Shown: positions 2 to 19,192 of the stretch, piece after piece
How the letters are laid out: every line of letters starts with the position of its first letter
Numbering within the stretch: position 1 is the first letter of the stretch
Assembly (NCBI GenBank): GCA_034429215.1
Contig: DAOUGI010000022.1
Location: forward strand, 7,132-31,131
Source: Anaerolineae bacterium
Lineage (GTDB): Bacteria > Chloroflexota > Anaerolineae > JAAYZQ01
Direction: 5' to 3'
DNA: 24,000 bases
Position numbers and translations under genes: made by a program
The notes under the pieces: generated by a model
The model's database searches: none
The model's input: the letters and a program-made list of their open reading frames with translations, nothing else
What the model was told of the DNA's origin: nothing

Positions 2-2404
2 GAGCGAGTGGATACCCTTGATGCATTTGAAGCCGTCATTGACCGGCAGTGGGAAGTCATCGTTGCCGACTATGCCATGCCGCACTTTGGCGGGCTGGCT
101 GCCCTGAAACGGGTGCAAGGCATGGGCCTTGATGTGCCGTTCATCATCGTTTCCGGCACAATTGGAGAAGACAGCGCCGTAGCGGCCATGAAGGCCGGAG
201 CCCACGACTATGTCATGAAAGATAATCTGGCGCGCCTGGTTCCTACCGTGCAGCGCGAGCTGCGCGAGGCACAGTCGCGGCAGGCGCGTCGACGTGCAGA
301 GGAGCGGCTGCGCGAAAGCGAGGCTCGCTACCGGCAATCCGTAGAGAACTCGCCCAACCCCATCTTTTCGGTGAATAGAGAAGACACCGTCCAGATGTGG
401 AATCAGGCCTGCGAGCAGGTCTTTCAATACAAGGCAGAAGAGATCATTGGCAGGGCTTATCATCAACTCCTGTGGGACACACAAGAGCAGGCTGCGGTTG
501 ATGGCCTACTGGCCCAGGTCTGGCAAGGGCTGTCGGTAAATGAGCAGGAGATGCAGTATCGGTGCAGGGATGGAACACAGCGGTTCATGGTCACGCGCAT
601 CTACCCTGTCTGCGATCTAGAGGGGCAGGTGGAAGGATGCGTGTTTGCCAATACCGACATCACCAAGCGCAAGCGAGCTGAACGGTTGCTCCAGGCACTG
701 AACGTAGCATCCCTGGCGATGCAGAAAGCCACAACACCGCAAGAGGTACTCACTACAGCAGGGGAAGGGTTCAAAGAGCTGGGTTTCTCTTGCGCGATTT
801 TCTTCACCGACGAGAGGCAAAGCAGGCTATTTCCCGAGTATCTCAGTTACAACCCAAAAGCGGTCAAGCTCGCAGAAAAGTTGCTCGGTGTCAATGCTGA
901 AACCTTTTCCCTAGCTGTCGAAACAGCAGATGTGTGGAAAGAGTCGACATGGAAGGGAAAAACCGTCTTTGTGGATGGCGCTGAGGGGTCGCGGCAGGTA
1001 CTGCCCAAGCCCTTGAAAAAGTTTGCCGGCCAGCTCGCTCAGGTCTTGGGGATCCCCAGATCGGTAATCGCCCCCCTCATCTTGGAGGACAAGGCCATCG
1101 GATTGCTCTCTGTCCAATCAGACGATCTCACCAAAGACGACATGCCGGCCATCACTGCCTTCGCCCACCAGATGTCAGCTGCCTGGCGCAAGGCCTGCTT
1201 AATGGACGACCTGGAAACGAGCCTGGAGGAGCTGAAACGCACGCAAGCCCAGCTCTTGCAGGCACAAAAGATGGAAGCGATCGGACGGCTGGCCGGCGGG
1301 GTCGCTCACGACTTTAACAACATGCTGACCATCGTCCATCTCAGCACGCGGCTACTGAAGCGGCAATTGCACCCGGAAGATCCATTGCTGGAATATGTGC
1401 AGCAGATCGAAGAAGCCGGAGACCGGGCTACCGCGCTAACCAAACAGTTGCTCAGCTTTAGCCGCCGGGATGTCATCGAGCCCCATGTTGTCGATCTCAA
1501 CCAAGAGATCGGCAGATTGAGCCGGATGCTGCAGCGTGTCATCGGTGAAGACGTCGATCTGGTGACCATGCTGTCCGAGGATTTGTGGCCCGTCTATCTG
1601 GATCCGGCCCAGATCGATCAGGCGATCGTGAACTTGGCCATTAACGCCCGCGACGCCATGCCCAACGGAGGCCGCCTGACAATCGAGACAACCAACACAA
1701 TGCTCGATGGGACATCCGCTGTCCGCCAGGTAGGCCTACAACCAGGAGATTATGTACAGCTCACTGTGACAGATACAGGGGTGGGTATGGGCGACGAAGT
1801 CAAAGCCCACCTTTTTGAGCCATTCTTTACAACCAAGGAACGGGGCCAAGGCACCGGCTTGGGCTTGTCCACTGTGTTTGGCGTCATTAAACAGAGTGGC
1901 GGACACATCTGGATTGACAGCGAAGTGGGGCAAGGCACGACCGTCCAGATCTACTTGCCCCGCACTGACAAGGTCGAGTCCCCAGATTCGCTGCGCGCAA
2001 CGCCCGCCAGCGCACTCCGTGGCAGTGAAACAATCCTGGTGGTGGAGGACTATACTGGCGTTCGAGATCTGGCTACCCAGATCCTGACAACGCACGGCTA
2101 CCAGGTGCTTGCCGCCAAAAACGGCCCCGAAGCCCTACGGATCAGCCTGAGGCACGACCGTCCCATCCACCTGCTATTGACGGACATGGTCATGCCCGGA
2201 ATGAACGGCAAGGAGTTGGCTGAGCAGATTCAAGCCCAGCGACCCGGCATTCGGATCCTGTATATGTCGGGATACGACAATCGCCTGGTTGAAGCCCCTA
2301 CGGTCCTAGGCGCGGGCGTGGCTTTCTTGGCCAAGCCGCTCACCGTGGAGACCCTGACCGAGAAGGTGCGAGCAGTGCTGGACAGGCCCAGTGAGATAAT
2401 CTGA
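2..2404 (+). CDS. Hybrid sensor histidine kinase/response regulator (REC-PAS-GAF-like-HisKA-HATPase_c-REC); 5' end cut by window edge
   Basis: The frame is open to the window start, and the first residues (EVIVADYAMPHFGG...FIIVSG...AGAHDYVMK) are the middle of a receiver domain, so the GTG at 8 is not the true start. A coiled-coil plus PAS region follows (NPIFSVN...WNQACEQVF...RCRDGT). H-box GGVAHDFNNML. HATPase_c N/G boxes (NLAINARDAMPNGG, DTGVGM, GQGTGLGLS). C-terminal receiver (ILVVEDY...LLLTDMVMPGMNG...LAKP). Stop TGA at 2402-2404. Confidence 0.9.
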   Translation, partial: ERVDTLDAFEAVIDRQWEVIVADYAMPHFGGLAALKRVQGMGLDVPFIIVSGTIGEDSAVAAMKAGAHDYVMKDNLARLVPTVQRELREAQSRQARRRAEERLRESEARYRQSVENSPNPIFSVNREDTVQMWNQACEQVFQYKAEEIIGRAYHQLLWDTQEQAAVDGLLAQVWQGLSVNEQEMQYRCRDGTQRFMVTRIYPVCDLEGQVEGCVFANTDITKRKRAERLLQALNVASLAMQKATTPQEVLTTAGEGFKELGFSCAIFFTDERQSRLFPEYLSYNPKAVKLAEKLLGVNAETFSLAVETADVWKESTWKGKTVFVDGAEGSRQVLPKPLKKFAGQLAQVLGIPRSVIAPLILEDKAIGLLSVQSDDLTKDDMPAITAFAHQMSAAWRKACLMDDLETSLEELKRTQAQLLQAQKMEAIGRLAGGVAHDFNNMLTIVHLSTRLLKRQLHPEDPLLEYVQQIEEAGDRATALTKQLLSFSRRDVIEPHVVDLNQEIGRLSRMLQRVIGEDVDLVTMLSEDLWPVYLDPAQIDQAIVNLAINARDAMPNGGRLTIETTNTMLDGTSAVRQVGLQPGDYVQLTVTDTGVGMGDEVKAHLFEPFFTTKERGQGTGLGLSTVFGVIKQSGGHIWIDSEVGQGTTVQIYLPRTDKVESPDSLRATPASALRGSETILVVEDYTGVRDLATQILTTHGYQVLAAKNGPEALRISLRHDRPIHLLLTDMVMPGMNGKELAEQIQAQRPGIRILYMSGYDNRLVEAPTVLGAGVAFLAKPLTVETLTEKVRAVLDRPSEII

Positions 2405-2420
2405 GGATCCGGACTACGAT

Positions 2421-3347
2421 TCATGCCAAGGCGTCTCGCAACGCCCCTTCAAGCTCGGGAAAATGGAACTGGAACCCCATGTCAAGAAGGTGGCGCGGCA
2501 CACCCCGCTGCCCGGTAAGCAACAGATCGGCCACTTCCCCAAACATTGCCTTCATCATCAAGCCCGGCACAGGCAGCCAGGCAGGCCTGCCCAGGACCCG
2601 CCCAAGGGCACGCGCGAATTGAGCATTGGTCACCGCCTGGGGTGCCACAAGGTTGAACAGCCCAGAGGCAGACTCGTTCTCGATCAGAAAACGGATCGCC
2701 CTGGCTTCATCCTTGAGGTGGATCCACGACATCCACTGCTTGCCGCTTCCGATAGGCCCGCCGGCGAACAGGCGAAACTGCAAGATCATCGGCCGCAGGG
2801 CGCCATGTGCCTTGTCGAGCACAACCCCGGTCCGCACAATGGCCCGCCGGACACCCATCGCCTCGACAGGCGCCGTGGAAGGCTCCCAGTCGTGCGCGGC
2901 AAAGCTGGCCAAAAAGTCTTGGCCTATCGGGCCATCCTCGGCAATTAGGTCATCGCCACGGGGGCCATACACCCCGACTCCCGATGCCTGTATCACAACG
3001 CGTGGCTTGCGGGTCACCTGCCTGACGGCGTCGACCACCGCCTGCCCCGCATTCAGCCGGCTTTCACGGATGATCCGTTTCCGCCCATCGGTCCATCGGC
3101 TGGGAAAAAGCCCTTCGCCCGAGATGTTCGCCCCGGCTAGGTTGACAATGGCGTCGGCGCCGTCGGCCAGCGCGGCCCACCCATCGCCGCTACGCCCGTT
3201 CCAGCGTTCAGCCCTCACCCCAGCAGGCAATCCTTTGACCTGCTCCGGTGCACGGCTCAAGACGATGACTTTATGGCCGTCCCTGGCTAGATCAGCAGAC
3301 AACGCTCCGCCGATGAGTCCGGTCCCCCCCGTGATAATGACGCGCAT
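2421..3347 (-). CDS. TIGR01777/YfcH-like atypical SDR (NAD-dependent epimerase/dehydratase fold with DUF1731-type C-terminus)
   Basis: N-terminal Rossmann motif MRVIITGGTGLIGGAL...GHKVIVLSR. C-terminal LLLTGQRGVPRHLLDMGFQFHFPELEGALRDAL is typical of the YfcH/DUF1731 tail. SD GGAGG lies 7 nt upstream of ATG 3347. Last gene of the heliorhodopsin operon. Confidence 0.8.
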   Translation of the reverse strand: MRVIITGGTGLIGGALSADLARDGHKVIVLSRAPEQVKGLPAGVRAERWNGRSGDGWAALADGADAIVNLAGANISGEGLFPSRWTDGRKRIIRESRLNAGQAVVDAVRQVTRKPRVVIQASGVGVYGPRGDDLIAEDGPIGQDFLASFAAHDWEPSTAPVEAMGVRRAIVRTGVVLDKAHGALRPMILQFRLFAGGPIGSGKQWMSWIHLKDEARAIRFLIENESASGLFNLVAPQAVTNAQFARALGRVLGRPAWLPVPGLMMKAMFGEVADLLLTGQRGVPRHLLDMGFQFHFPELEGALRDALA

Positions 3348-3394
3348 GTGATGACCTCCAGGTTCCTCTAGTCCAGGCTATCCACCTGGTCCGG

Positions 3395-4699
3395 CTATTG
3401 GCTGCCGGTGGCCTTTTGCAGCCAGGTGAGAATCAGGTCGCCGCGCCGGTCGAGCTCCCCCTCGGCAGCCACGCGGTAGGCGTGCAGGTAACGGGCCAGG
3501 GTGCCTTCCGGCACGCCCGCTCGGGCGAGCCTCTCCTCAGCATCAGCGATGTTGAAATCGAGAAAAATCACGTCCCCCAGGGCGAGCGCCGCCTCCAGGT
3601 GTGATGCAAACTCTTCGTTGGCGTGGGCCAGGTGCCACAAAGAAAGGCCGATCTCCCCGGCGGTCTGGCTCATCCTTGATTCAATCGATCCGCGCCGCTC
3701 GCGGAAATGCTCCAGGGCCGCGCGAGGCTCCACCGGGATCGGCTCGCCTTCTGGCGCACGGGGAGGGAATGGCATCAGCGAGTCCACCGCGTCGGCTGCC
3801 GTCGTCAGGCTTTCACCAAGGAAATGGCCGGAAATCCGGGACCGGATGGCCGGAAGCGAATGGAATATTCCTCCCCCATAGCCGATCGGCGTATGGTCCT
3901 GTAGTGCATGGGTCGTCTCGAGCAGGGTTGCCGCCGAGGGCAGCCGCATCGCGGTCAGGATTGACAGGCTTGGCCGGACGGCCGCGACGGTAGCTTCCAG
4001 TTGCTCCACCGGCACGTTCGCCCCGAGGTACACAACCGCCCATCCACGGCGGCGCAGCAGGAAGGTCAACAGCAACAGGCCAAAGACATGGTACTCCTGC
4101 GGTGGGCAGGCAGCTAGGATCTGGCCCGGCCGCGTGGCAGGGGAGGCAGCCATGAGCAACGACTCTAGTTGGCGGATGGCCAGCTCTGACACAAAGTGCT
4201 CCTGCTGCACTGTAGCAGCGCCCTGCTGCCAAAGAACGCCCACCTCTGCCAGGGCCCACCGCAGCAATTCAAGGCAGACGGTTTCTGGAGGGTAGAGCGC
4301 AAATGCCTGCGCCGCCGCCTGCTCAGCCCACTGCTCGTCATAGGCCAAGCAGGCCGCGAGCCATTCGTGCCGCAGCTCGTCCAGCGTGCCACCCACGAGC
4401 CCTAGCTTGACCACCGGAGTGGCTGGCAGCGCAAACGGCAGCGCATCGCTTCCGCCGGCCTCGATCCGGCGCCACAGGTCGACGGCCCGGCTGATGCTCA
4501 GTCCTTCTCGCAGGCGAGCCACCAGCCAGTTCAGCGCCTCAATGTCGTGCTGGGTGTAGAGGCGATGCCCGCCGCCGCTCCGGGTGGGAGACGGCACCCC
4601 ATAGCGACGCTCCCAAGCACGCAGAGCATCGGCCTTTAGGCCTGTCTGCTTCAGGACGGCCTTTAGGTTGAACAGGGGTCCTTCACTCTCAGCACTCAT
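3395..4699 (-). CDS. CarH/LitR-type light-responsive transcriptional regulator (MerR HTH + B12-binding module) with an extra C-terminal domain of about 130 aa
   Basis: MerR HTH: FNLKAVLKQTGLKADALRAWERRYGVPSPTRSGGGHRLYTQHDIEALNWL. Four-helix-bundle signature W-x9-EH (LWQQGAATVQQEHF). Lower-axial-ligand motif ExHxxG (PPQEYHVFGLLL), then SxL (SILT) and GGG of the Rossmann B12-binding fold. It continues about 130 aa beyond where CarH normally ends. AGGA lies upstream of ATG 4699, 13 nt after the DUF1295 stop. Confidence 0.8.
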   Translation of the reverse strand: MSAESEGPLFNLKAVLKQTGLKADALRAWERRYGVPSPTRSGGGHRLYTQHDIEALNWLVARLREGLSISRAVDLWRRIEAGGSDALPFALPATPVVKLGLVGGTLDELRHEWLAACLAYDEQWAEQAAAQAFALYPPETVCLELLRWALAEVGVLWQQGAATVQQEHFVSELAIRQLESLLMAASPATRPGQILAACPPQEYHVFGLLLLTFLLRRRGWAVVYLGANVPVEQLEATVAAVRPSLSILTAMRLPSAATLLETTHALQDHTPIGYGGGIFHSLPAIRSRISGHFLGESLTTAADAVDSLMPFPPRAPEGEPIPVEPRAALEHFRERRGSIESRMSQTAGEIGLSLWHLAHANEEFASHLEAALALGDVIFLDFNIADAEERLARAGVPEGTLARYLHAYRVAAEGELDRRGDLILTWLQKATGSQ

Positions 4700-4712
4700 T
4701 TTTCCTGCACAC

Positions 4713-5501
4713 TCAGCGCCGTTTCTTGGGGAACCAGGGCAAAAAAGCGCTTGTACTCTCGATATACTCGCGGTAGCCTGGCTTGGTCGTCGTCAAGGTT
4801 TTTTCCAACAAAGCCACTCCCGAAACCCGGAGCAGCATGAGCGTCATCAGGATTGGGCTCCAGATCGTCCAGAACCCACCCGCCGCCGCGGCGATGAGAT
4901 AATATCCCCACCACTGGGCCGCGTCGCCAAAGTAGTTTGGATGGCGGCTGTAGCGCCATACGCCGCTGTCCAGCACCTTTCCCTTGTTCGCCGGATTGGC
5001 CTTGAACCGGGTGAGCTGCAAATCTCCCACAGACTCAAAAAAGAACCCAATGGCCCACACCACAGCGCCCAGCAGGTCCACCACGGTCAGGCGGTCGGGT
5101 GTCGGGCTGATCTGAGCGGCCAGAAGCGGCGCCGAGATGATCCACAACAACACGCCCTGCAGCATAAAGACGCGAAAGAAGCTCTGCCACCACCAGCGGG
5201 TCCCGAACTCCTCTCGCCACTTGCGATAGCGAAAGTCTTCTCCCGCGCCCCAATTGCGGCGCAAAAGGTGAATCGACAGGCGCAGCCCCCAGATTGTGAC
5301 CAAAATGGCGATCAGCCACTTGCGCGCCGGGAACCCGTCGGGCGTCAGGGCAAAATAGAGCCAGTTGGCAATGACAAAACCGGTCCCCCAATAGGGATCG
5401 ACAATGCTCGAGTTGCGCAAAACCAGGCTGAGGCCCCACAACAGAGCCATGAGCCCCAACGTCACGCCCAGGCCGATGAGATACGCTTCCAGAAATGTCA
5501 T
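4713..5501 (-). CDS. DUF1295 family polytopic membrane protein (steroid 5-alpha-reductase / ICMT-like superfamily)
   Basis: Multi-TM hydrophobic profile. Hallmark C-terminal motif WRYSRHPNYFGDAAQWWGYYLIA. SD GGAGGT lies 6 nt upstream of ATG 5501. Confidence 0.8.
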   Translation of the reverse strand: MTFLEAYLIGLGVTLGLMALLWGLSLVLRNSSIVDPYWGTGFVIANWLYFALTPDGFPARKWLIAILVTIWGLRLSIHLLRRNWGAGEDFRYRKWREEFGTRWWWQSFFRVFMLQGVLLWIISAPLLAAQISPTPDRLTVVDLLGAVVWAIGFFFESVGDLQLTRFKANPANKGKVLDSGVWRYSRHPNYFGDAAQWWGYYLIAAAAGGFWTIWSPILMTLMLLRVSGVALLEKTLTTTKPGYREYIESTSAFLPWFPKKRR

Positions 5502-5521
5502 CTCTTTACCTCCATCAGGTG

Positions 5522-6364
5522 CTAGCTTTTCGCTTGTATGGCCACAAAACCCGCTGCCCTGGGGCCGATGTGGGTGCCGATAACCGGTGTCACTTCGGCA
5601 ACCATCGGCTCTTCGGCATCAGGAAACAGATGCAAGGCCTTCTGATGGAGAAACTCTGCCTTGTCAGGCGCATGGGTGTGAACCAGGGTCAGCTTTTCAA
5701 AAGGCGCCAATTGGGTTACAAGCTCCATCAGCCGGGCAGAAGCGCCATTCCGCGTGCGCACACGCTCCATCTCAAACTCGCCGCGGTGCATCTTGAGCAA
5801 GGGTTTGATCTGAAGCACAGATCCCAGGCTGGATTGGAAACGGCTCAGACGGCCGCTGCGCCGCAGAAATTCCAGGGTGTCCAGGGCGGCGATGCAATGG
5901 GTGCGGGACGCCTGGTCCTCAATGGCTGCCATAATATCGCTCATGGGCTGACCCTCGGCCGCCGCCTTGGCCGCGGTGACGGCCAACAGGCCGGTGCCCA
6001 GGGTTAACTGGCCCGAGTCGAATACGGTAACCGGCACCCTCTTTACCTCTTCTGCCGCCAGGCGCGCCACGGCCATCATGGCGCTCAGGCCGCTGCCGAT
6101 GTGGATCGAGAGGATCTCGGTAGCCCCGGCCTGCGCAAGGTTCTCATAAACCTGAACAAACTGCCCAGGGCCCGGAACTGAAGTGGTGGGGTGCGCTTCG
6201 AAATGGGGCAAGCCCTCGTAAAACTCCTCATGCGACATCTCGACGCCGTCCAGATAGCTCTTCTTGCCAATGTTGATGTACAAAGGCACGACGGTTATGC
6301 CATACTCGGCCACCATATCCTCGGGCAAATCACAATTACTGTCAGTTACGATCTTGATGCCCAT
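5522..6364 (-). CDS. DegV family fatty-acid-binding protein (FakB-like)
   Basis: Canonical DegV N-terminus IKIVTDSNCDLPEDMVAEYGITVVPLYINIGKKSYLDGVEMSHEEFYEGL. Length 280 aa is typical. SD GAGGGAG lies upstream of ATG 6364. Confidence 0.85.
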   Translation of the reverse strand: MGIKIVTDSNCDLPEDMVAEYGITVVPLYINIGKKSYLDGVEMSHEEFYEGLPHFEAHPTTSVPGPGQFVQVYENLAQAGATEILSIHIGSGLSAMMAVARLAAEEVKRVPVTVFDSGQLTLGTGLLAVTAAKAAAEGQPMSDIMAAIEDQASRTHCIAALDTLEFLRRSGRLSRFQSSLGSVLQIKPLLKMHRGEFEMERVRTRNGASARLMELVTQLAPFEKLTLVHTHAPDKAEFLHQKALHLFPDAEEPMVAEVTPVIGTHIGPRAAGFVAIQAKS

Positions 6365-6393
6365 TCCCTTACTCCCTCTTGACTAATAAGGAT

Positions 6394-6858
6394 CTACAAT
6401 CGGTAGTCGGCCGGGGTTCCCCAACGCTCTGTCTTGTGGTAACGACGGTTGGTCGATTGAAAATGGATCCAAATTGGCACCCGATCCAGCTCCGGCCTGG
6501 CCTCAAATAGGCCTCTGTCGCCCATACGAAGCGCCTCGATCGCCAGTGGAAGCTCGTGCCGGAAAATCCTGTCACGCATGCCAGCAGCGCCAAAAGCCAG
6601 CCCTCCGCTGACGTGGCAAAAGATGTGCAGCGCCGGTCCATCCTCGCCCTCCTGCCACTCAGCCAGCACCTCATCGCGCATCAAACGGGTGTACCAGCCC
6701 GAGATCTGTTCGCGATCCACTTCGGGCGCAATGGTCAAGAACAGCTCGCCCGTTGTGTCAGAGTGGGTTAGGGTGTAGCGCCTGGGGTTAAGCGGGCCAT
6801 CAGTTGTGGTACCCACCGCGAACTGGACGTGCAGCTTTTCCGGACTGAGACGACTCAT
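6394..6858 (-). CDS. Staygreen (SGR) family protein, bacterial homolog of chlorophyll Mg-dechelatase
   Basis: Colinear by eye with the plant SGR core. This ORF has PRRYTLTHSDTTGELFLTI, GWYTRLMRDEVLAEW, LHIFCHVSGG, IFRHELPLAIEAL, VPIWIHFQS and ERWGTP. Plant SGR has PRTYTLTHSDITSKLTLAI, GWYNRLQRDEVVAEW, LHVHCHISGG, IFCKELPVVLKAF and VWVYFHS. The THSD and RDE acidic/His motifs are intact. SD GGGAGAAG lies upstream of ATG 6858. Confidence 0.85.
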   Translation of the reverse strand: MSRLSPEKLHVQFAVGTTTDGPLNPRRYTLTHSDTTGELFLTIAPEVDREQISGWYTRLMRDEVLAEWQEGEDGPALHIFCHVSGGLAFGAAGMRDRIFRHELPLAIEALRMGDRGLFEARPELDRVPIWIHFQSTNRRYHKTERWGTPADYRL

Positions 6859-6869
6859 AGCTTCTCCCA

Positions 6870-6902
6870 GCCCCCACGCCGGGTGTCGTCCGGCGTGGGG
6901 GC
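6870..6902 (-). promoter_or_regulatory. Intercistronic GC-rich stem-loop between heliorhodopsin and SGR genes (13-bp perfect stem, 7-nt loop, no U-tract)
   Basis: 6870-6882 (GCCCCCACGCCGG) is the exact reverse complement of 6890-6902 (CCGGCGTGGGGGC). The loop is GTGTCGT. On the mRNA strand the stem ends 1 nt before the SGR SD (GGGAGAAG) and starts 25 nt after the heliorhodopsin stop. Confidence 0.7.
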
Positions 6903-6927
6903 GCTTGGTGATCGCAGCGATAGGGGC

Positions 6928-7752
6928 CTAGACGGGAGCCAGCGTCCCGGCAAAGATCATCCAGGCCAGTGCAGTCTTGGCCGCCAGGCTGAGGATGATG
7001 TACACCCGCTCGCCGAACAGGTAATCTTTCCAGCGGCCGACCTTCTTGTATTGCAGGAACATGTTCACGGCAAAGATATTAAAGAATACAAAGATCGTGG
7101 GGATGATGGCATACACAAAGGCGGGCGGCTTGGCATCCCCAGACGACAATGCGCTCAGGAAGTACATCACAATCACCACCCACGGAATAATCCCCGCGAT
7201 ACAGCCATAGATGAACGAGGTCCAGTCGGTCTTTTTCGTCGTCTGGTTGTGCAGCTCCATGATCATGCCAAACAGGTTCATCATGGCGTTAATGCCAAAC
7301 ATCACGATCATAGTGCCCAGGTCCCACACGCCGACCAGCATGCCGATCAACACGATCATCAGCGAAGAGCTGAGGGCATACTCGTAAAAGCGCGCCGGGT
7401 TCATGCCCACCTTGAGATGCTTTACGTACCACTTGTAGCCAAAGGTGGCCAGGGACAAGTGGGCTACTGCAGAGATCAACAGAAACAAGGCAACCGCCGG
7501 GCCGAATCGCAGGTCAAAGGCCAGCTTTGGATCCGGCACTAGGGCACGAGCGGCCATGTCGAACTTTAAAAAGTTGGTATAGATCGGATAGGTCGTGTCA
7601 TTGCTGAGCACGATCATCAGGATGCCCTGGATCAGGTGCAGGAACCCCATCACCAGGTTAAAGCGGCGCAGACCTTGGTAGGTCTTTTCGGGTACGTCCG
7701 GCGTCTTGGTCATGACAACAGATTTGGGCGCGGCTTTGGATTTCGCAGGCAT
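6928..7752 (-). CDS. Heliorhodopsin (retinal-binding 7-TM photoreceptor, inverted topology)
   Basis: Alignable by eye along its full length to heliorhodopsin 48C12. Conserved blocks: GFLHLIQ (TM1 His), ALFLLISAVAHLS (TM2 His), RFYEYALSSSLMIVLIG (counterion Glu), GCIAGIIPW, AFVYAIIPTIFVFFNIFA, QYKKVGRWKDYLFGERVYIILSLAAKTALAWMIFAGTL (Schiff-base Lys in SLAAK). Lys-rich N-terminus. I prefer ATG 7752 (SD AAGGAGA 8 nt upstream) over the TTG at 7812 given in the ORF track. Confidence 0.92.
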   Translation of the reverse strand: MPAKSKAAPKSVVMTKTPDVPEKTYQGLRRFNLVMGFLHLIQGILMIVLSNDTTYPIYTNFLKFDMAARALVPDPKLAFDLRFGPAVALFLLISAVAHLSLATFGYKWYVKHLKVGMNPARFYEYALSSSLMIVLIGMLVGVWDLGTMIVMFGINAMMNLFGMIMELHNQTTKKTDWTSFIYGCIAGIIPWVVIVMYFLSALSSGDAKPPAFVYAIIPTIFVFFNIFAVNMFLQYKKVGRWKDYLFGERVYIILSLAAKTALAWMIFAGTLAPV

Positions 7753-7830
7753 GATACTTTTCTCCTTGTCTTGTAGTTGGATTAGAATGTCCTTATGGTG
7801 CGGGCGCTGCAATTCCCACTACCGATAGAG

Positions 7831-7859
7831 ATTTTACCACAAGCCTGACGTTTTGTCAA
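7831..7859 (-). promoter_or_regulatory. Predicted sigma-70-type promoter of the heliorhodopsin operon
   Basis: Read on the minus strand: TTGACA (7859-7854), a 17-nt spacer, then TAAAAT (7836-7831) preceded directly by TGG (extended -10 TGn). It lies in the only AT-rich stretch of this region. The predicted leader to ATG 7752 is about 70 nt. Confidence 0.65.
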
Positions 7860-7874
7860 TATATTGTCGATATT
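7853..7874 (-). promoter_or_regulatory. Two tandem 11-bp direct repeats, candidate CarH-type operator overlapping the -35 box
   Basis: On the minus strand: AATATCGACAA (7874-7864) then TATATTGACAA (7863-7853). They match at 8 of 11 positions with exact 11-bp phasing. Both fit all five specified positions of nAnnTnnACAn. The flanking 11-mers (AACGCGTAAGA upstream, AACGTCAGGCT downstream) fit only 2 of 5 positions. Confidence 0.55.
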
Positions 7875-7939
7875 TCTTACGCGTTTCTAATAGGGGAGGT
7901 GGGCGCTATTATCTACCTGATGCCCGTGAGGCAATTGCA

Positions 7940-9952
7940 TTATCTCAATGACATGGTTGCGCCGCTCCTGTCCCCATGGTAGATGAATCCTAGCATGCGG
8001 CTGATCTTGGTCGGGTCAATACCTGCGTCGACCAGGGAGGCAGTCTGCCATTCGTCGTCGGTTTGCTCGGGGATCTTGTCATACGGGGCCAGCGTGGGTA
8101 CCGGCGTTCGGGCGGGTTGGGTGGCTGGTACTGTCACTGCTAGGCCTGTTGCAGGTACTGGTCCGAAAGCAGGCCTACACATGGGCGTGATCTTATCCAG
8201 CTCCCGCACCGCTGCATCCCAGGTGAACTCCTGGTTGTCGCTAAAGTAGTAATATGCGGTCCCGTTGGGCATGATGGCAACCACATTGCCGCTGATCCCA
8301 AGCATCTGCGGCACCCAGAACTCGCAGTCAAAGCCGTCGGCTTGGCTATAGCGGTTAGCCCAGAAGGCGTTATTGTACACCCGCCGGCTGTCTATCATTA
8401 CGCCACGGTCATCGGGTGATCGCTGTAGGGCGGCGGCAAGCAGGCCAGGGTGCAACACCTGGACGCCATCGATCTGCCCCTGCCAACTGTTCAGCAGGGT
8501 GGCAATCTTGGCGATGTCATCTGGAATCCACCACAAGCCATAGCCGCCCTCGGCCTGCCCCTGCCAGTCGTTGTCGGCGGTGCGCATGGTGGTGTATGCC
8601 CCTGGGCCGAGCCCGAGCGGCCGGTAGACCTCATCTACCACGAACTGGAAGATATCTGCCCCAGGACCTTCTTGGCTCTGCAGATAATTATGTAAGGCCC
8701 TGGTGAGGATGAATGTGTCACCGGTATGATACACCCAGTGCGTGCCCGGCTCAGCGGCCTGAGGCCAATCAAATGCCGCGGCGATCCGCGCGGCGTAGGG
8801 CTGGGCGCCAAAGAACTCGCCCATGTTAAAGCCGTCCTCGTCGGCCATGTAGCCCGCCGAGCCATAGTTCCCGGCAGACATGTCTATGGTGTGGTTGAAT
8901 GTCACCCGTTCCCAGTCCCCTGGGCTGGCGGCATATTCCGGGACATAGTCCTTGATCAGCAGGCCGGCCACCTCGGGCCCATATTTCTGCGCCAGGCGCA
9001 TCAGGGCCACGCTGACAAACGCCGATTTGGCAGTGGAGAAAGAGGCAGCGCGCATCGACTCGCAGTAGGGATAGATCCCAAAGCGGGTCTGGCAGCCGCC
9101 CAGGTAGTTGACCCCGTTCGCCACGACGCCATACCAGGTCATGTGCTCCGGACTAACGCCGCGCCCAAAGCCCGTGATGTCAACCCCGAGATAATCCTCG
9201 GCCAGCGCCTGGATCGGTTTGGTCGGCATGCGGGCGGCCAGCTCGGCCGCAAACTCGGTCCGGATGCGCTCGGCATCCTGAACAGGTCCTGGATAGTACG
9301 CAGCGTCCAGCAATCCCCACAGATCAGCCCGCGTGTAGGAAGTGACTTCTTGGGTAACCTGGTACCAGACCTTCGAGACGCTTCTTTCATCGAACAGGAA
9401 GGTCATCGTGCCATTAAAGCAGGAATTGCCGCCCTTGACCACCAGTGCAAAGGGCAAAGATGCCCGCGAGAAACCGCTATCGCCGGCCTCCTGCCACACC
9501 CGCCCCGGCTCAAGGATAATGTTCCACTCAGGATGGCCGGTGACGATCGATCCGCGCTGCACGGGGAGCAGATATCCATCGCTCTGCACGAATTCAAAAT
9601 CAAACTCTGGCAGGTAGGCGTATTCCGGCCCCAGCTCGCCCTGCAGCACCTGAATCTGGCCGCCTTCCCTCTCCCCGGCCAGCTCCAGGCGGCCTTCAAA
9701 GATGTGTGCCGCCGGAGCGGCGCCGGAAGGCGGGGCAAGTGCGCTCTCGTCCACCGGCGACGTGGCCTTGAATCCGTTCGCCAGCGCATCGTAGGTCAGC
9801 AGCGAGCGCTCCACCTCCCCGCTTCCGGCAAGAGCGGTGGTAGGCATCGTCGCGGCCGGCGTGGCGGTCGCCGCTGGGCTGACAGCATTTGGGGCAGAAG
9901 TACATGCAGCCAGGAGTATAAGGCCCACCAGAAGCAGCCGCGCAGCCTTCAT
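7940..9952 (-). CDS. Lipoprotein with beta-lactamase-fold serine hydrolase domain
   Basis: From ATG 9952 (SD GGAGG 5 nt upstream): MKAARLLLVGLILLAAC, a signal peptide with lipobox LAAC, followed by an Ala/Thr/Pro linker. Candidate SxxK nucleophile motif (FSTAKSAF) sits in a region of about 350 aa with beta-lactamase/esterase-like character. Pro/Thr-rich linker near the C-terminus. The ORF-track start at 10006 would overlap the upstream gene. Confidence 0.6.
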   Translation of the reverse strand: MKAARLLLVGLILLAACTSAPNAVSPAATATPAATMPTTALAGSGEVERSLLTYDALANGFKATSPVDESALAPPSGAAPAAHIFEGRLELAGEREGGQIQVLQGELGPEYAYLPEFDFEFVQSDGYLLPVQRGSIVTGHPEWNIILEPGRVWQEAGDSGFSRASLPFALVVKGGNSCFNGTMTFLFDERSVSKVWYQVTQEVTSYTRADLWGLLDAAYYPGPVQDAERIRTEFAAELAARMPTKPIQALAEDYLGVDITGFGRGVSPEHMTWYGVVANGVNYLGGCQTRFGIYPYCESMRAASFSTAKSAFVSVALMRLAQKYGPEVAGLLIKDYVPEYAASPGDWERVTFNHTIDMSAGNYGSAGYMADEDGFNMGEFFGAQPYAARIAAAFDWPQAAEPGTHWVYHTGDTFILTRALHNYLQSQEGPGADIFQFVVDEVYRPLGLGPGAYTTMRTADNDWQGQAEGGYGLWWIPDDIAKIATLLNSWQGQIDGVQVLHPGLLAAALQRSPDDRGVMIDSRRVYNNAFWANRYSQADGFDCEFWVPQMLGISGNVVAIMPNGTAYYYFSDNQEFTWDAAVRELDKITPMCRPAFGPVPATGLAVTVPATQPARTPVPTLAPYDKIPEQTDDEWQTASLVDAGIDPTKISRMLGFIYHGDRSGATMSLR

Positions 9953-10779: not shown

Positions 10780-11709
10780 TCAGAACTCTTTGAGCCACGT
10801 CTTGGAATCCTCTTTTGTTCCGAGCACGGACCCGTACAACGCGTCGGCGGGCGGATCATAGGCATTGGCCAACAGCCGGGTGCAGCCCATCAATTGCAGG
10901 CGCCTCATCCCTTCGGTCATGACGGCTTTGCCCAGCCCGCGCCGCCAGTGCTCCGCGGCCGTCCCCACCAGCACCGACACGGCGCTGCGGGTGTAATCGT
11001 CGTAAAAGATGGTGCAAAAGGCAGCGATGCTGCCGTCCGGGGCAGCGGCGACGATGTCCAGGTCGCGGCGGTAGAGCGGGGCAGACTGGACGTTTTGGTA
11101 CCACGACCAGTCGCCATCATAGGCCTCGTCCGGCTCGTCGGCGTGAAAAGCGCGCCACGAAGCCCAACTGCGGGCCGGGTGCTCGCTCAGGTCCCCCATC
11201 GAGCGGATGGTATACCCCGGTGCAAGCGGCGTTTCCGGCAGGGGGCACTCCAGATCCCGGTGCCAATGATGGACAACCCCGCTCTGCCTGGTGTACCCAC
11301 GCCGAGTCAGTATCTCCTGGCGTTGGGCATCGTCGGCAAAGGCGGGGACATACACGATCCGTTCCCCAGTCTGATTCCGGCCAAACAGGTGCTCCTCGGC
11401 ATGGGCGAGCATCTCGTCCTCCAGATCTGCCGTACGGAAATGGGGATGCACGTGCAGGCACACCTCACTCCAGCCGACCGGATGCAGCACTGCTGCTATC
11501 TGATCCCCAGCCGTCTCCCACAGGGTGGCCGCCTTCTCCACCGGGTCACACACCTGAAGGTTCAGGACAAAATGCCAGCGCAAGTAGTCGAGGCGCGCGA
11601 CGTGCCAGCTATGCTCGCGGCGTCCGTTGAGCGCAAACACTTCCCGCAGGAAATTGCGAATCCGCCAATAATCGTCTTCAGTTTGGGCCTGTTGCATAGT
11701 TAGCTTCAC
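10780..11709 (-). CDS. Two-domain GNAT family N-acetyltransferase (paralog of 14303-15247)
   Basis: C-terminal GNAT motif A: VGTAAEHWRRGLGKAVMTEGMRRLQLMGC. Roughly half of the residues are identical by eye to the 14303-15247 product, including EDDYWRIRNFLREV, GYTIRS, QSAPLYRRDLDIVA and DGSIAAFCTI. The start is GTG 11709 (or ATG 11697), 3 nt after the APH-like stop. Confidence 0.8.
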   Translation of the reverse strand: MKLTMQQAQTEDDYWRIRNFLREVFALNGRREHSWHVARLDYLRWHFVLNLQVCDPVEKAATLWETAGDQIAAVLHPVGWSEVCLHVHPHFRTADLEDEMLAHAEEHLFGRNQTGERIVYVPAFADDAQRQEILTRRGYTRQSGVVHHWHRDLECPLPETPLAPGYTIRSMGDLSEHPARSWASWRAFHADEPDEAYDGDWSWYQNVQSAPLYRRDLDIVAAAPDGSIAAFCTIFYDDYTRSAVSVLVGTAAEHWRRGLGKAVMTEGMRRLQLMGCTRLLANAYDPPADALYGSVLGTKEDSKTWLKEF

Positions 11710-11712
11710 AGC

Positions 11713-12774
11713 TCACCGCCTCTCAAGGTATCGCAGCAATTTGGTTCCGTCCCGGTTCCGCCACTCCTCGTGTTCGGCCCGCCTGGCCGGGTCGTTCTTG
11801 ATAAACAGGGATGCCCACAGGACCATGGTGGCATATTGCGTGGCCATGAACAGGTCGAGGTGCCGGAGCTGCGATTCGGGCAGCGTGCGGACCTGGGCAT
11901 AGCCCTCCAGAAAGGCATCCCGCATCCAGTACCATTCCTCGGTCCAGGGCCACAGGCACAGGGCGATGGCAATGTCCCACAGCCAGTAGCCAAAACCGCA
12001 GTCCTCAAAGTCGATCGGATACGCCTCGTCGCCCTTAAACAGCACATTCTCCGGATACATGTCGGCGTGGATCAGGCCATAGGCATCCGGCCCCTTGCCC
12101 AGGCCCTCCATCACCTGCCGCGCCTCTTGCGACACGATCTCGAACGGCTTTCTCAAGCGCTCCGGCATCGAGGCCACCAGCTCTTCGACACCGCCGTCGA
12201 AATACCGCCCGCCCAGTTGGCCCTCCCAGTCCCACACAGGCCGCTCAAACCCATCAGGAGGCTGCCAGCCCGCCGCGAACTGGTGCAGCCGGGCCACCAT
12301 CCGCCCCCAGGCCCGGAAATGGCTGGGGCGAAACCCTTTGGTCAACCTTCGCCCGTCGATCCAGCGCATCAGCGATACAATCCGCCCCTGTGGCGTCCCC
12401 GGAGTGGTGAAGCTCGTCACCAGCTCACCCTCCAGATTGGGCACCGGCTCTGGCACAGGCAGACCTGCCTCGCGGCTCAGCGCCGCCAGCCAGGTCATCT
12501 CTCCCTTGGTGCCCTCCAGGTGATCTGTATAGAGAACCCGCAGCAGATAGCGGTTGGGCACGTAGGGTCCTGGCCCCTCCCCCCTGACCGCAAGGGAAGC
12601 CGGGACGTCAACCCGGTAGATGATGTTGGCCGAGTATTGGACGAACTCGAGCCGGGCTCCACTCAAGCCATAGGCATCGAGCGCAGCCTCGGCCAGTCGC
12701 CTGGTCTGGCGCAGTTGGCCCAGGCGTGTCAGATCACCATAGGGCTTCACAATCCTTCGTCTCCTGGTGAGCAT
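11713..12774 (-). CDS. Phosphotransferase-family kinase (APH / CotS / homoserine-kinase-II-like fold)
   Basis: Brenner catalytic motif GLIHADMYPENVLF and Mg-binding PIDFEDCGFG. The start is ambiguous. ATG 12774 follows a GGGGGA run. GTG 12750 would form a GTGA 4-nt overlap with the upstream stop. The ORF-track start at 12816 is less likely. Confidence 0.75.
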   Translation of the reverse strand: MLTRRRRIVKPYGDLTRLGQLRQTRRLAEAALDAYGLSGARLEFVQYSANIIYRVDVPASLAVRGEGPGPYVPNRYLLRVLYTDHLEGTKGEMTWLAALSREAGLPVPEPVPNLEGELVTSFTTPGTPQGRIVSLMRWIDGRRLTKGFRPSHFRAWGRMVARLHQFAAGWQPPDGFERPVWDWEGQLGGRYFDGGVEELVASMPERLRKPFEIVSQEARQVMEGLGKGPDAYGLIHADMYPENVLFKGDEAYPIDFEDCGFGYWLWDIAIALCLWPWTEEWYWMRDAFLEGYAQVRTLPESQLRHLDLFMATQYATMVLWASLFIKNDPARRAEHEEWRNRDGTKLLRYLERR

Positions 12775-13829
12775 TCCCCCGCCAGATTCAACGGCAGGGT
12801 AATGGTGAACCTGCACTCGTCGTTGCCCCTCAGCAAGGTCTCGGCCTGTTCAAACCTGACCGGCTGCTCTAAAATCCCCTCCCACAGCCGCCGGTACCAG
12901 CCCGCTCCACAGAAACAAAAGGTCGGCGACAGCTTGGCAGGGATTTCGTCAAGATAAGGGTGGACAAATGGGCAATGGCAGTAGGCCTTGCGCCGTTCAG
13001 CCGGGGTCGCTGCCTTCTCAAAGCCCTCGGGGTCAAAGGGGTTCTTGCGCATGTGGACAACGTTGCCCTTGCGCACCGGCTTTTCATACCAAAAGCTGTC
13101 GGCGTACATCTCGTGCAGGACGTCGTCGATCTCGCCGCGCCGGTGATAGATGGCGCGCAGGTGATCGATCCGCTCCTGCGGAAAGACGTGAGCGCAGTGC
13201 GACACGGCCTGGCACTTCTTTTCGGCGTCGTCGCTCAGCGCATCCAGCCGCTCGATGGCGCCCTGGATCCAGGCGGTGTAATCGTCAAAGGAGGATGCAG
13301 GCGTGATCGCTTCGATCCCCTGCATGACCCGCTCTCGGGCCTCCATCCCAAGGACCGTTTCGGTACCCTCGGCCAGCAGCCGATCCCACTCGTGCAGGAT
13401 CACCTGCACCTCGGTGACATCCTCCTCCGGATGGGCGGCATCCAGCGCCCGGTAGATCTCCCGCCTGAACAGGGACGTCGTCCCGGCGTGCTTGTCCAGG
13501 TAGGCGTAGATCCTGAGCACGCTTTCCCGGATCGACCGGTGCGCGCCGTGGTGGAGCGTGATCAGCGCCGGGGCAGCTTCCAGCGTGCGGGTGCGAACCT
13601 CGCCGGTTTCCACCGCGCGCACCACCGGGAAAGCAGCTTCGACCAGAAAGCCGTCCTTCACCGCCCCGCCGTGAAAGATAACCATGGCATCGCCGCGGAT
13701 GGCCTCGCCGCAGGCCGCCCGCAGCCGGTCAAGCAGCGGCGGGATCTCGTCGCGGGTGTCGATGCGGGCTGTGAGGCTGGCGATCTGAACCGGATCGAGT
13801 TTTCTGTAAATGATAGGTTCGTCAGTCAT
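12747..13829 (-). CDS. Fusion protein: N-terminal GyrI-like/effector-binding-type domain plus C-terminal Cys/His-rich domain of unknown function
   Basis: The N-terminal ~150 aa (IASLTARID...IPPLLDRL...FHGG...FLVEAAFPV...LEAAPALITLHHGAH...IYAYLDKHAG) follows the pattern of GyrI-like small-molecule-binding domains. The C-terminal part carries CQAVSHCAH, YCHCPFVHP, FCFCGAGWYRRLWE and ECRF. No HTH is present. Confidence 0.5.
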   Translation of the reverse strand: MTDEPIIYRKLDPVQIASLTARIDTRDEIPPLLDRLRAACGEAIRGDAMVIFHGGAVKDGFLVEAAFPVVRAVETGEVRTRTLEAAPALITLHHGAHRSIRESVLRIYAYLDKHAGTTSLFRREIYRALDAAHPEEDVTEVQVILHEWDRLLAEGTETVLGMEARERVMQGIEAITPASSFDDYTAWIQGAIERLDALSDDAEKKCQAVSHCAHVFPQERIDHLRAIYHRRGEIDDVLHEMYADSFWYEKPVRKGNVVHMRKNPFDPEGFEKAATPAERRKAYCHCPFVHPYLDEIPAKLSPTFCFCGAGWYRRLWEGILEQPVRFEQAETLLRGNDECRFTITLPLNLAGECSPGDEGL

Positions 13830-13865
13830 CTCTGTTTCCTCCAGGTTGGACAGACGCCCATGGGA

Positions 13866-14291
13866 TCAGACCAGGCTCTTGGTCATAAAGTACTGGGTAT
13901 GTCCCGTGGGCATATTGGGCAGTACTCCAAAAACCGTGTAATCGCGTTTCTGGTAAAATGGCAGGGCGTTGAAACTGCCCGTCATCAGATGCACAGCGTG
14001 GCAGCCGCGCCGCCGCGCTGCCTCCTCCGCTTCGACCAGAAGCCGGCTGCCAAGTCCCAGCTTCCGGAACCGCTCGTCGGTCCACAGCCGCCCGACATAC
14101 AGGTACTGCCAATAGGTGCTTCCCGTCAGCCCGGCGACAATTGTCCCGCCAGCATCCCGCGCGAACAGGGCCAGCGGCACCCAATCCACTACCACCCCCT
14201 GGGACGCGTCGTACCCATCCAGCCCCTGTTTGACCACATCCACATCGGCAGGGTCTGGCGAATCGGTCAGTGTGATCGTATATTCCGGCAT
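13866..14291 (-). CDS. Single-domain GNAT family N-acetyltransferase
   Basis: LYVGRLWTDERFRKLGLGSRLLVEAEEAARRRGCHAVHL is GNAT motif A (R/Q-x-x-G-x-G/A). I prefer ATG 14291 (AAGGA SD, 11-nt gap after the upstream stop) over the ORF-track start at 14321. Confidence 0.8.
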   Translation of the reverse strand: MPEYTITLTDSPDPADVDVVKQGLDGYDASQGVVVDWVPLALFARDAGGTIVAGLTGSTYWQYLYVGRLWTDERFRKLGLGSRLLVEAEEAARRRGCHAVHLMTGSFNALPFYQKRDYTVFGVLPNMPTGHTQYFMTKSLV

Positions 14292-14302
14292 CTTGCGTCC
14301 TT

Positions 14303-15247
14303 TCAGAACTCTTTCTCCCACGGCTCACACAGGTCATATTCCTCGCCCATCACCGAAAAGTACAAGGCGTTCGCCGCTTGAGAGTAGCCGCTGACAAAGG
14401 CCACCTTGGCGCCCATGCGCTTGAGGCGGTGCAGCCCTTCGATCATGACCGCCTTGCCCAGCCCGCGCCGCTGGTGGGCCGGCACGGTCGCCATCGGTTC
14501 GAAACAGGCCGTGCGAGTCACATCGTCGAACCAGATCGTGCAGAAAGAGGCGATCGACCCGTCGGATGCCACGGCCACAATATCCAGGTCACGGCGGTAG
14601 AGCGGTGCAGACTGGATATCGTGGTACCAAGCCGGATGATCCCGGTTGTCGCGGGCAATGTTGATGTCGTCGTCGTGAAAACCGAGCCCTGAGGCATAAC
14701 AACGCTCGAGCAGCTCGAGCCCATCGCCGAGAGAACGGATGGTGTAGCCCGGAACGAGCGGAACCTCTGCAAGTGACCCATCCAGTGAACGGCGGTGCTG
14801 GTACTCCTGCTCTTCCGGCCCATCAACCCGGCGAAAGCCGCGGCGGATCAGGATCTCCTGGCGCATTTCGTCGTGCGAGTCAGCCCACAGCCACACCTTT
14901 CGGCGGCCATCGCGGCCGGTCGCCGCCAGGCGCTCTTCGGCAAGCGAAATCATCTCTTCTTCCAGAAGAGGCGTGCGATAATCGGGATGAACCTGCAGAA
15001 ACACCTGTCTCCAATCTTCCGGATTCAACACCGCCGCGATCTGCCCGGTCTCTGTCTCCCAAATGAACAGATTTTCCGCGAGTGGAATCTTTTGGAGGTG
15101 TGAATTGATGAACCACCACCAGTAATCCAGCCGGGAAACGTGCCAGCTCAGCTCCCGCCGGCCGTTGAGCAGCATCACCTGGCGCAGGAACTCGCGGATA
15201 CGCCAATAGTCCTCTTCGGATTGGTAACTACGCATTGTCGTCTTCAC
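14303..15247 (-). CDS. Two-domain GNAT family N-acetyltransferase (paralog of 10780-11709)
   Basis: GNAT motif A ATVPAHQRRGLGKAVMIEGLHRLKRMGA. Shares the N-terminal EEDYWRIREFLRQV and central GYTIRS / QSAPLYRRDLDIVA blocks with the 10780-11709 product. GTG start 8 nt after the OYE stop. Confidence 0.8.
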   Translation of the reverse strand: MKTTMRSYQSEEDYWRIREFLRQVMLLNGRRELSWHVSRLDYWWWFINSHLQKIPLAENLFIWETETGQIAAVLNPEDWRQVFLQVHPDYRTPLLEEEMISLAEERLAATGRDGRRKVWLWADSHDEMRQEILIRRGFRRVDGPEEQEYQHRRSLDGSLAEVPLVPGYTIRSLGDGLELLERCYASGLGFHDDDINIARDNRDHPAWYHDIQSAPLYRRDLDIVAVASDGSIASFCTIWFDDVTRTACFEPMATVPAHQRRGLGKAVMIEGLHRLKRMGAKVAFVSGYSQAANALYFSVMGEEYDLCEPWEKEF

Positions 15248-15255
15248 AATTTATG

Positions 15256-18682: not shown

Positions 18683-19192
18683 ATGGACGCTTACGAAGCT
18701 ATTATGACCCGCCGCAGCATCCGCGCCTACACCGCGCAGGCGGTGAGCGACGAGCTGATCAAAGAGCTGCTGGCTGCGGCCATGAGCGCGCCGTCGGCCA
18801 GCAACCGGCAGCCGTGGCATTTCGTGGCCATCACCGAGCGCCGGCAATTGGACGCCCTGACGGCGATCCTGCCCTACGGGCAGATGCTCAAGCAGGCGCC
18901 GCTGGCCATCGTCGTGTGCGGCGACCGCGAGCGGCAGCCGATGGAGGGCTACTGGGTCCAGGACTGCTCGGCCGCCACACAGAATATCCTGCTGGCCGCC
19001 CATGCCAAGGGGCTGGGCGCGGTGTGGCTGGGCGTCTACCCCCGCGAGGAGCGGATCCAAGAGATCAGCCGACTGCTCGGCCTGCCGGAGCAGGTGTCGC
19101 CGCTGGCGGTCCTGTCGATCGGCTACCCGGCCGAGCACAAGGGGCCGGCCGACCGCTACGACGAGAGCCGCATCCATCGTGACCGGTGGTAG
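18683..19192 (+). CDS. Nitroreductase family protein
   Basis: AIMTRRSIRAYT...LLAAAMSAPSASNRQPWHFV...QDCSAATQNILLAAHAKGLGAVWLG are canonical nitroreductase blocks. Strong SD GGAAAGGAAGGA lies before ATG 18683. The ORF-track start at 18554 lies upstream of the promoter. Confidence 0.9.
   Translation: MDAYEAIMTRRSIRAYTAQAVSDELIKELLAAAMSAPSASNRQPWHFVAITERRQLDALTAILPYGQMLKQAPLAIVVCGDRERQPMEGYWVQDCSAATQNILLAAHAKGLGAVWLGVYPREERIQEISRLLGLPEQVSPLAVLSIGYPAEHKGPADRYDESRIHRDRW

Follow-up and report, generated by a model that had tools for sequence, protein, structure and literature searches.

A gene for a homolog of the Mg-dechelatase STAY-GREEN (SGR) was found directly behind a heliorhodopsin (HeR) gene in a 24,000-nucleotide (nt) stretch of DNA from an Anaerolineae bacterium (GenBank assembly GCA_034429215.1, contig DAOUGI010000022.1, positions 7,132–31,131 of the forward strand), which is referred to in its whole length as the window. 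The SGR gene is the second gene of a predicted six-gene operon whose only promoter-like site is overlapped by a candidate operator of the CarH type. Both the operator–promoter combination and the HeR–SGR pair recur at related loci. We lean, if not strongly, towards the reading that SGR of this bacterium is a light-induced Mg-dechelatase within a photoprotection gene set of the Anaerolineae.

The SGR gene and its predicted operon

The SGR open reading frame (ORF) matched the Pfam profile Staygreen (PF12638) from end to end (residues 4–152 on profile positions 2–147 of 147; E = 6.2e-49; 166 bits with a cutoff of 27). It was also colinear, residues 1–154 on 1–154, with AbSGR-h (E = 4.5e-55, ~62% identity), the homolog from Anaerolineae bacterium SM23_63, whose metagenome-assembled genome (MAG) was called non-photosynthetic and whose crystal structure (PDB 7Y5Y; PMC11006732) is the only one solved for the SGR family (Obata 2019; Dey 2021/2022; Sato 2024). 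Given the full-length identity, the product of the ORF probably has the same fold as 7Y5Y. The motifs YTLTHSD and LMRDEV place T31, H32, S33 and D34 and R61, D62, E63 and V64, respectively, and the structural residues R26, Y28, T29 and D114 (AbSGR-h numbering) were kept as well. All catalytic and structural residues, whose roles have been described (PMC8531759; PMC11006732), were at positions identical to those of AbSGR-h. Moreover, H32, D34 and D62 were invariant across a 14-sequence alignment (A2) of the Anaerolineae-type SGR clade. Judged by its sequence, the product is predicted to be capable of catalysis as an Mg-dechelatase; as a protein, it is an ordinary new member of the SGR family.

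The first-pass annotation of this DNA had named His32, Asp34 and Asp62 as retained, and its numbering was correct both in the sequence and in the alignment to 7Y5Y, which confirmed the catalytic residues against a characterised SGR. It had also stated that Anaerolineae SGR homologs are Mg-dechelatases in vitro, which was largely right, as AbSGR-h is highly active (PMC11006732, citing Obata 2019), and that the His and Asp residues are essential. The latter holds for D34 and D62, as the D34N and D62N mutants of AbSGR-h lost activity, but is overstated for H32, as the H32A mutant remained weakly active (PMC8531759). AbSGR-h acts with low specificity on chlorophylls a, b and c, chlorophyllide and protochlorophyllide (PMC11006732).

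Similar to AbSGR-h, the plant and algal STAY-GREEN proteins (SGR1, SGR2 and SGRL) share the Pfam domain and the THxD and RD motifs with the SGR of the window. Plant-type homologs of 250–270 amino acid residues aligned to the ORF in a single colinear stretch with identities of 43–50%, which bears out the earlier view that the ORF is colinear with the plant SGR core. Unlike plant SGR, the ORF has neither a transit peptide nor a C-terminal Cys-rich tail, of which the CxxxCxCCFP terminus of one plant-type homolog is an example. The bacterial enzymes also have a wider substrate range than those of plants (PMC11006732). Plant SGR acts on the plant's own chlorophyll within the PAO pathway, whereas no such pathway was seen at the window locus.

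The gene upstream of SGR encodes a HeR, as judged by its matches to Pfam (7e-102) and to the NCBIfam HeR equivalog NF038020 (373 bits with a cutoff of 100). Its closest structure was TaHeR (PDB 6IS6; 4.7e-79), and the alignment showed conservation of the retinal Schiff-base Lys (SLAAKTALAW) and the counterion Glu (RFYEY). The ATG at position 7752, preceded by the ribosome-binding site AAGGAG, is its probable start. Because the HeR stop codon is at positions 6928–6930 and the SGR ATG is at position 6858, the spacer between the two genes is exactly 69 nt, the length given by the first-pass annotation.

Of all short-range inverted repeats in the window, the one in the HeR–SGR spacer is the strongest; it corresponds to a hairpin with a minimum free energy of -39.1 kcal/mol (z = -4.46). 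A comparable hairpin was found in 14 of the 17 other distinct HeR–SGR spacers, including those of the related loci L006, L010, L011, L017, L020, L021, L024, L039, L049, L059, L081, L089 and L094. Its structure is conserved, while the stem sequences vary by clade. No known RNA family of Rfam was matched at the hairpin or in the rest of the operon. Its most likely role is to adjust the levels of the transcripts relative to one another, be it by stabilising the HeR segment or by acting as a leaky terminator.

The six genes HeR, SGR, DegV, DUF1295, CarH-like and yfcH are co-directional and separated by gaps of 69, 29, 20, 13 and 47 nt, respectively (Table 1). The tight gaps and the lone promoter-like site suggest that SGR is the second gene of one operon. 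The short spacer, the lack of an internal promoter-like site and the recurrence of the pair (see below) likewise point to a single predicted transcription unit for HeR and SGR. This order resembles the HeR–DegV/DUF1295/DUF2177 neighbourhood described previously (Chazan et al., bioRxiv 10.1101/2021.02.16.431466; Environ Microbiol 2022), in which HeR is likewise followed by DegV and DUF1295. Different from that neighbourhood, SGR is inserted between HeR and DegV, the carH-like gene is inside the operon and DUF2177 is absent from the window. In the closest relatives (L006, L010, L020 and L021), a divergently transcribed DUF2177 gene precedes HeR. The position of SGR is also similar to that of the partners in the HeR–glutamine synthetase, HeR–photolyase and HeR–ABC transporter OmrDE pairs, which adjoin HeR in a predicted unit. 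SGR is, however, not among the ten HeR neighbour groups reported previously (PMC11109279).

Predicted CarH-type control of SGR genes

The promoter in front of HeR was the only promoter-like site found by a consensus scan of positions 2300–8200 and is ~80 nt 5' of the HeR ATG. Two perfect tandem repeats, AATATCGACAA and TATATTGACAA, which follow the CarH operator consensus nAnnTnnACAn (PMC8156234), cover its -35 box, and the core of the candidate operator is ACAATAnnTTGACA. In the 24 kb of the window, this tandem pattern is matched a single time, with 0.02 matches expected by chance. The flanking repeats are imperfect. The two repeats over the -35 box are conserved at 10 related loci.

The fifth gene of the operon encodes the corresponding candidate regulator. 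Similar to CarH, it combines an N-terminal MerR helix-turn-helix with B12-binding domains of the four-helix-bundle and Rossmann types (Pfam MerR_1, 1.6e-11; B12-binding_2, 2e-10; B12-binding, 2.2e-09). Both signatures that define CarH homologs, Wx9EH and ExHxxG (PMC8156234), were also found. The former is WQQGAATVQQEH at residues 157–168 and corresponds to the motif that caps the adenosyl group in CarH, and the latter is at residues 202–207. These features, together with the repeats over the -35 box, are shared with the adenosyl-B12-dependent CarH/LitR regulons of Thermus, Myxococcus and Bacillus megaterium, to which the carotenoid genes and photolyase at loci related to the window add a likeness in content. 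Different from those regulons, the one predicted here includes HeR and SGR; no description of either gene in CarH regulons was found.

The composite motif ACA[AT]NANNTT[GC]ACA, 15–19 nt, TANNNT was searched in 616 kb, comprising the window and the related loci. All 11 occurrences, one in the window and the others at 10 related loci, were 5' of SGR-containing gene strings and on the same strand. The motif heads HeR-SGR-DegV-DUF1295-carH in the window and at L006, L007, L010 and L021. At L020, whose contig ends just past SGR, the HeR-SGR start is shared with the window. The other strings are Peptidase_M50-MFS-HeR-SGR (L017 and L039), MFS-HeR-SGR-hydrolase (L089), M50-MFS-SGR (L095) and crtI-crtB-unknown-SGR-photolyase with a divergent carH-like gene (L001, 4897–9125). 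Given that the same operator–promoter heads SGR strings with or without HeR, SGR appears to be a consistent member of a CarH regulon. The first-pass annotation had regarded the operon of the window as putatively light-induced. The CarH-type operator over the -35 box, the CarH signature motifs of the regulator and the conserved architecture all support this, and light induction of the operon is thus predicted.

With regard to the L001 string, it is of the classic light-induced carotenoid operon type, with SGR included, and its unknown gene encodes 163 amino acid residues and recurs adjoining crtI at L057. The regulator of L001 has 330 residues, while the long form of 431–434 residues is shared by the window, L006 and L010.

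Recurrence and genomic contexts of SGR

A pattern scan derived from alignment A2 identified 80 SGR loci on metagenome contigs, all of them relatives with at least 60% identity (60–84%), and their neighbours were annotated by phmmer. Upstream neighbours were counted wherever 300 bp or more of upstream sequence was available, which was the case for 66 loci. HeR was the immediate same-strand upstream gene at 15 of these 66 loci (23%) and thereby the most frequent upstream neighbour, followed by MFS (7), DUF1475 (6) and photolyase (3). Among all 80 loci, 19 had HeR within 3 kb of SGR. The order was always HeR followed by SGR, on the same strand and with a short spacer. A recurrent association of bacterial SGR homologs with HeR or MerR-B12 genes, which the first-pass annotation had regarded as informative, thus exists within the Anaerolineae-type clade. 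A single-protein search of genome contigs yielded three SGR loci, none of which had HeR.

The arrangement of the window was kept at 81–82% identity in the close homologs on long contigs (L006/L007 and L010), while at 73% identity (L011 and L017) only MFS-HeR-SGR was kept and the downstream genes were all different. The loci with HeR were spread over at least six subclades of a neighbour-joining SGR tree, in between loci of other contexts, and had differing flanks. The linkage held down to ~50% identity of HeR and ~60% identity of SGR. The pairwise identities of HeR and SGR were correlated (r = 0.69; Mantel test, 0 of 2000), which would also be expected from shared organismal descent.

SGR was also found in light-stress clusters without HeR. 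The AbSGR-h locus (L102; LJUS01000007.1, 1580–9462) contains genes for an ABC transporter, photolyase, SDR, DUF1475, DegV, a TspO-like protein, DUF4345 and DUF3159, with SGR last. It thus resembles the window in that SGR is clustered with DegV and other light-stress families and differs from it in that no HeR was found within 9 kb. Its relative L103 additionally has DUF1295 and yfcH. At L014, the string is DegV-DUF1295-MFS-SGR-hydrolase-DUF1475-CMAS, with photolyase, TspO and yfcH on the opposite strand, and L002 is similar. Photolyase adjoins SGR at L068, L069 and L076, and genes for YbgA-like DUF523+DUF1722 (10 loci), DUF3159 (6 loci) and MsrA-MsrB (4 loci) were found near SGR. The yfcH/DUF1731 family was likewise near SGR at L002, L014, L017, L057 and L103. 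Because SGR is in light-stress clusters that lack HeR, such as the AbSGR-h locus and crtI-crtB-SGR-photolyase, the common denominator appears to be light regulation and not HeR itself. The association of bacterial SGRs with light-related genes therefore stands for the Anaerolineae-type clade, including clusters that lack HeR, but does not extend to the three Bacillota homologs discussed below.

It is possible, although we consider it unlikely, that SGR interacts directly with HeR as its soluble partner, which the first-pass annotation had found plausible; light-activated HeR would bind SGR at the membrane and switch or localise the dechelatase. Such a partnership would be compatible with CarH control, to which it would add post-translational light gating. 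The rank of HeR among the upstream neighbours, the fixed order, the short hairpin-containing spacer, the retention of the pair while its surroundings change and the co-divergence of the two proteins are all consistent with it, and there are precedents for HeR regulating its operon neighbours (PMC9529153; PMC9769723; PMC11109279). However, HeR is missing next to about three quarters of the close homologs of SGR, AbSGR-h has no HeR neighbour and is active alone in vitro (PMC11006732), and the co-divergence is equally given by organismal phylogeny.

Several further observations concern the genes around SGR. A trio of MFS, SGR and Abhydrolase_5, often with DUF1475, recurs at L002, L014–L016, L025, L028, L055–L057, L070, L091 and other loci. 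The hydrolase after SGR was considered as a chlorophyllase or pheophytinase, an idea without sequence support because its Pfam matches were only the generic Abhydrolase_5, Abhydrolase_1 and Hydrolase_4 and its nearest structure, 9EH6, came from a PETase-mining study. At L022 (161–2096), SGR, DegV, SGR and hydrolase are on a 2.5-kb contig, and the two SGR-like ORFs that flank DegV may be a tandem duplication. SGR homologs were also found in Asgard-type archaeal MAGs (L003, H02S_Hermod_124; P0394, Candidatus Hodarchaeota archaeon). They are only 59–82% identical to the Anaerolineae enzymes and may reflect either horizontal transfer or binning contamination. No discussion of the genomic context of AbSGR-h was found in the literature consulted on the SGR family.

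The features of the operon are listed in Table 1. Elsewhere in the window, a gene for a hybrid histidine kinase with PAS, GAF, HisKA, HATPase and two receiver domains (8–2404, + strand) converges on the end of the operon, and the source contig beyond it encodes further PAS/GAF kinases (L004). Positions 10780–18437 (- strand) contain four or five GNAT acetyltransferase paralogs, interspersed with an APH-family phosphotransferase and an Old-Yellow-Enzyme-type flavin oxidoreductase. A DnaE-type DNA polymerase III alpha subunit of 1102 residues (PHP, DNA_pol3_alpha, finger and HHH_6 domains) is encoded at 19002–22310 (+ strand). It lies in a stretch whose GC content, at 0.69–0.71, is clearly above the ~0.62 found elsewhere; the gene may be an error-prone copy of the DnaE2 type, or the segment may have been acquired.

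Table 1. Genes and predicted regulatory elements of the SGR operon, with positions in the window
Feature	Position	Strand	Basis and remarks
Candidate CarH operator	7854..7873	-	two tandem 11-bp direct repeats, nAnnTnnACAn; overlap the -35 box
Predicted sigma-70-type promoter	7831..7859	-	consensus scan; TTGACA, 17-nt spacer, TG-extended TAAAAT (11/12 matches)
Heliorhodopsin (HeR)	6928..7752	-	274 residues from ATG 7752; Schiff-base Lys K259, counterion Glu E124; ORF spans 6928-7812
Intercistronic hairpin	6870..6902	-	GC-rich; 13-bp perfect stem, 7-nt loop, no U-tract; followed by SGR ribosome-binding site GGGAG
SGR (Staygreen) Mg-dechelatase homolog	6394..6858	-	154 residues; profile and alignment; H32, D34 and D62 intact
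DegV-family fatty-acid-binding protein	5522..6364	-	Pfam 4e-77; TIGR00762, 273 bits
DUF1295 membrane protein (steroid-reductase / ICMT-like fold family)	4713..5501	-	2e-75
CarH-like MerR-HTH and B12-binding regulator	3395..4699	-	434 residues; profiles, Wx9EH and ExHxxG
yfcH / DUF1731 SDR-family oxidoreductase	2421..3347	-	profile matches (TIGR01777); last gene of the string

Possible role of SGR in the Anaerolineae

According to the reading that we favour, the B12-bound tetramer of the CarH-like protein, encoded by the operon itself, would block the -35 box in the dark by sitting on the 11-bp repeats. On illumination, photolysis of the cobalamin would release the repressor, so that HeR and the five downstream genes would be transcribed and SGR would be produced in illuminated cells, while the spacer hairpin would probably raise the ratio of HeR to downstream transcripts. 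SGR would then strip Mg from chlorin-type pigments, for which chlorophyll derivatives acquired from phytodetritus by non-phototrophic Anaerolineae of sediments and mats are likely candidates. Its activity would thus belong to a wider response to light stress that may also comprise photolyase, carotenoid synthesis, TspO, Msr and the lipid-handling DegV and DUF1295, and that often seems to add an MFS transporter and an alpha/beta-hydrolase.

A number of observations weigh against this reading. With regard to the regulation, the operator has only two perfect repeats, compared with 3–4 in characterised CarH operators. The regulator scored 135 bits against the NCBIfam CarH equivalog NF052513, which has a cutoff of 400; the strict pattern ExHx2Gx41SxV/Tx22-27GG was unmatched and only a relaxed version, with S-x-L and looser spacing, was found; and a C-terminal extension of ~150 residues (residues ~285–434; 3395–3850, - strand) had no Pfam match. 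Because of the score below the cutoff, the loose B12 motif and the extension, the regulator is named CarH-like and not CarH. Moreover, no perfect CarH operator was found at the AbSGR-h locus, its relative L103 or the Bacillota loci. The Bacillota homologs themselves, from Pseudobacteroides cellulosolvens, Sporosarcina sp. and Clostridium tetanomorphum, are solitary SGR genes in unrelated contexts. As none of the three has light-related neighbours, the light association belongs to the Anaerolineae-type clade and not to all bacterial SGRs. The hairpin of the spacer could also be a terminator that uncouples SGR from the HeR promoter.

The chemistry raises difficulties as well. Removal of Mg from chlorophyll yields pheophytin. 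Pheophorbide has been described as a highly active photosensitiser (preprint 10.64898/2026.03.19.712979). Given that pheophytin and pheophorbide are phototoxic, dechelation alone is not obviously protective, and protection would depend on follow-up reactions. This weakens the proposal of the first-pass annotation that the enzyme may disarm Mg-tetrapyrrole photosensitisers. The neighbourhoods that were examined showed no ring-opening enzyme. Finally, the activity of bacterial SGR on chlorophyll was interpreted as promiscuous (Obata 2019, as represented in preprint 10.64898/2026.03.19.712979 and PMC11006732).

It may be speculated that the hydrolase and the MFS protein that recurrently adjoin SGR are candidates for the follow-up steps. 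A more elaborate version, which we regard as rather improbable, is a light-gated disposal of pigments. In it, CarH derepression would supply the proteins and photoactivated HeR would recruit or activate SGR at the membrane, so that foreign Mg-chlorins in the bilayer would be demetallated only in the light; in many relatives, the adjacent hydrolase would dephytylate the products and the adjacent MFS protein would export them, and DegV and DUF1295 would take the lipid tail. If true, this would amount to chlorophyll detoxification by non-phototrophic bacteria and to a new physiological function for heliorhodopsin.

Alternatively, SGR may be light-regulated while chlorophyll is not its natural substrate, its native role being on another metallo-tetrapyrrole or on a membrane or lipid substrate. 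We consider this explanation unlikely. It would fit the low specificity of AbSGR-h and the promiscuity attributed to the bacterial activity in the sources cited above, the description of the hosts as non-phototrophic and the unrelated contexts of the Bacillota homologs. DegV and DUF1295 are, furthermore, established HeR-associated families that have been linked, together with DUF2177, to lipid remodelling (Chazan et al.). However, the residues for Mg-dechelation, H32, D34 and D62, are invariant in A2, the tetrapyrrole-binding TspO family recurs nearby, and an alternative substrate is not suggested by any of the data.

That the host is a Chloroflexota bacterium that makes (bacterio)chlorophyll and in which, as in plants and algae, SGR serves the turnover of endogenous pigments under high light, is very improbable. 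Some Chloroflexota are phototrophic, and light-induced turnover would fit CarH control, but no photosynthesis or bch families were found in the window or in the Pfam-annotated related neighbourhoods, and the MAG that contains the characterised relative was called non-photosynthetic (PMC11006732). Least probable of all is an accidental HeR–SGR adjacency: the gene order of any single MAG contig may be fortuitous, but this is contradicted by 15 independent-looking occurrences with at least four flank architectures, the conserved regulatory site and spacer hairpin, and linkage that persists at low identities of both proteins.

Earlier publications cover many elements of the favoured reading, light-induced dechelation within a photoprotection gene set: the SGR family with its structure and in vitro activity, the HeR-DegV-DUF1295-DUF2177 neighbourhood, the CarH regulons and the regulation of operon neighbours by HeR. 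A full-text search of the literature found no paper that joins heliorhodopsin with staygreen or dechelatase, although the searchable literature is incomplete and an earlier mention is possible. Neither Staygreen nor PF12638 was matched in the paper and supplements of Chazan et al., one large table of which was covered in part, and SGR is unmentioned in the HeR neighbourhood studies. Rhodopsins, operons and gene neighbourhoods are also left aside in a 2026 preprint on the degradation of chlorophyll by prokaryotes (10.64898/2026.03.19.712979). The placement of SGR, a variation on both the HeR-partner operon and the CarH regulon, recurs often enough to deserve serious attention.

The HeR–SGR loci connect two questions, the role of SGR in bacteria that make no chlorophyll and the function of heliorhodopsin, for which few partners are known. 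In the Anaerolineae, SGR recurs within a predicted light regulon of the B12/CarH type and is, among the sampled SGR loci, the gene most often found directly behind HeR. Plant SGR is thought to have been derived from bacterial homologs by horizontal transfer. Our results suggest that a link between light and pigment handling may go back to the ancestral role of this enzyme of plant chlorophyll degradation.

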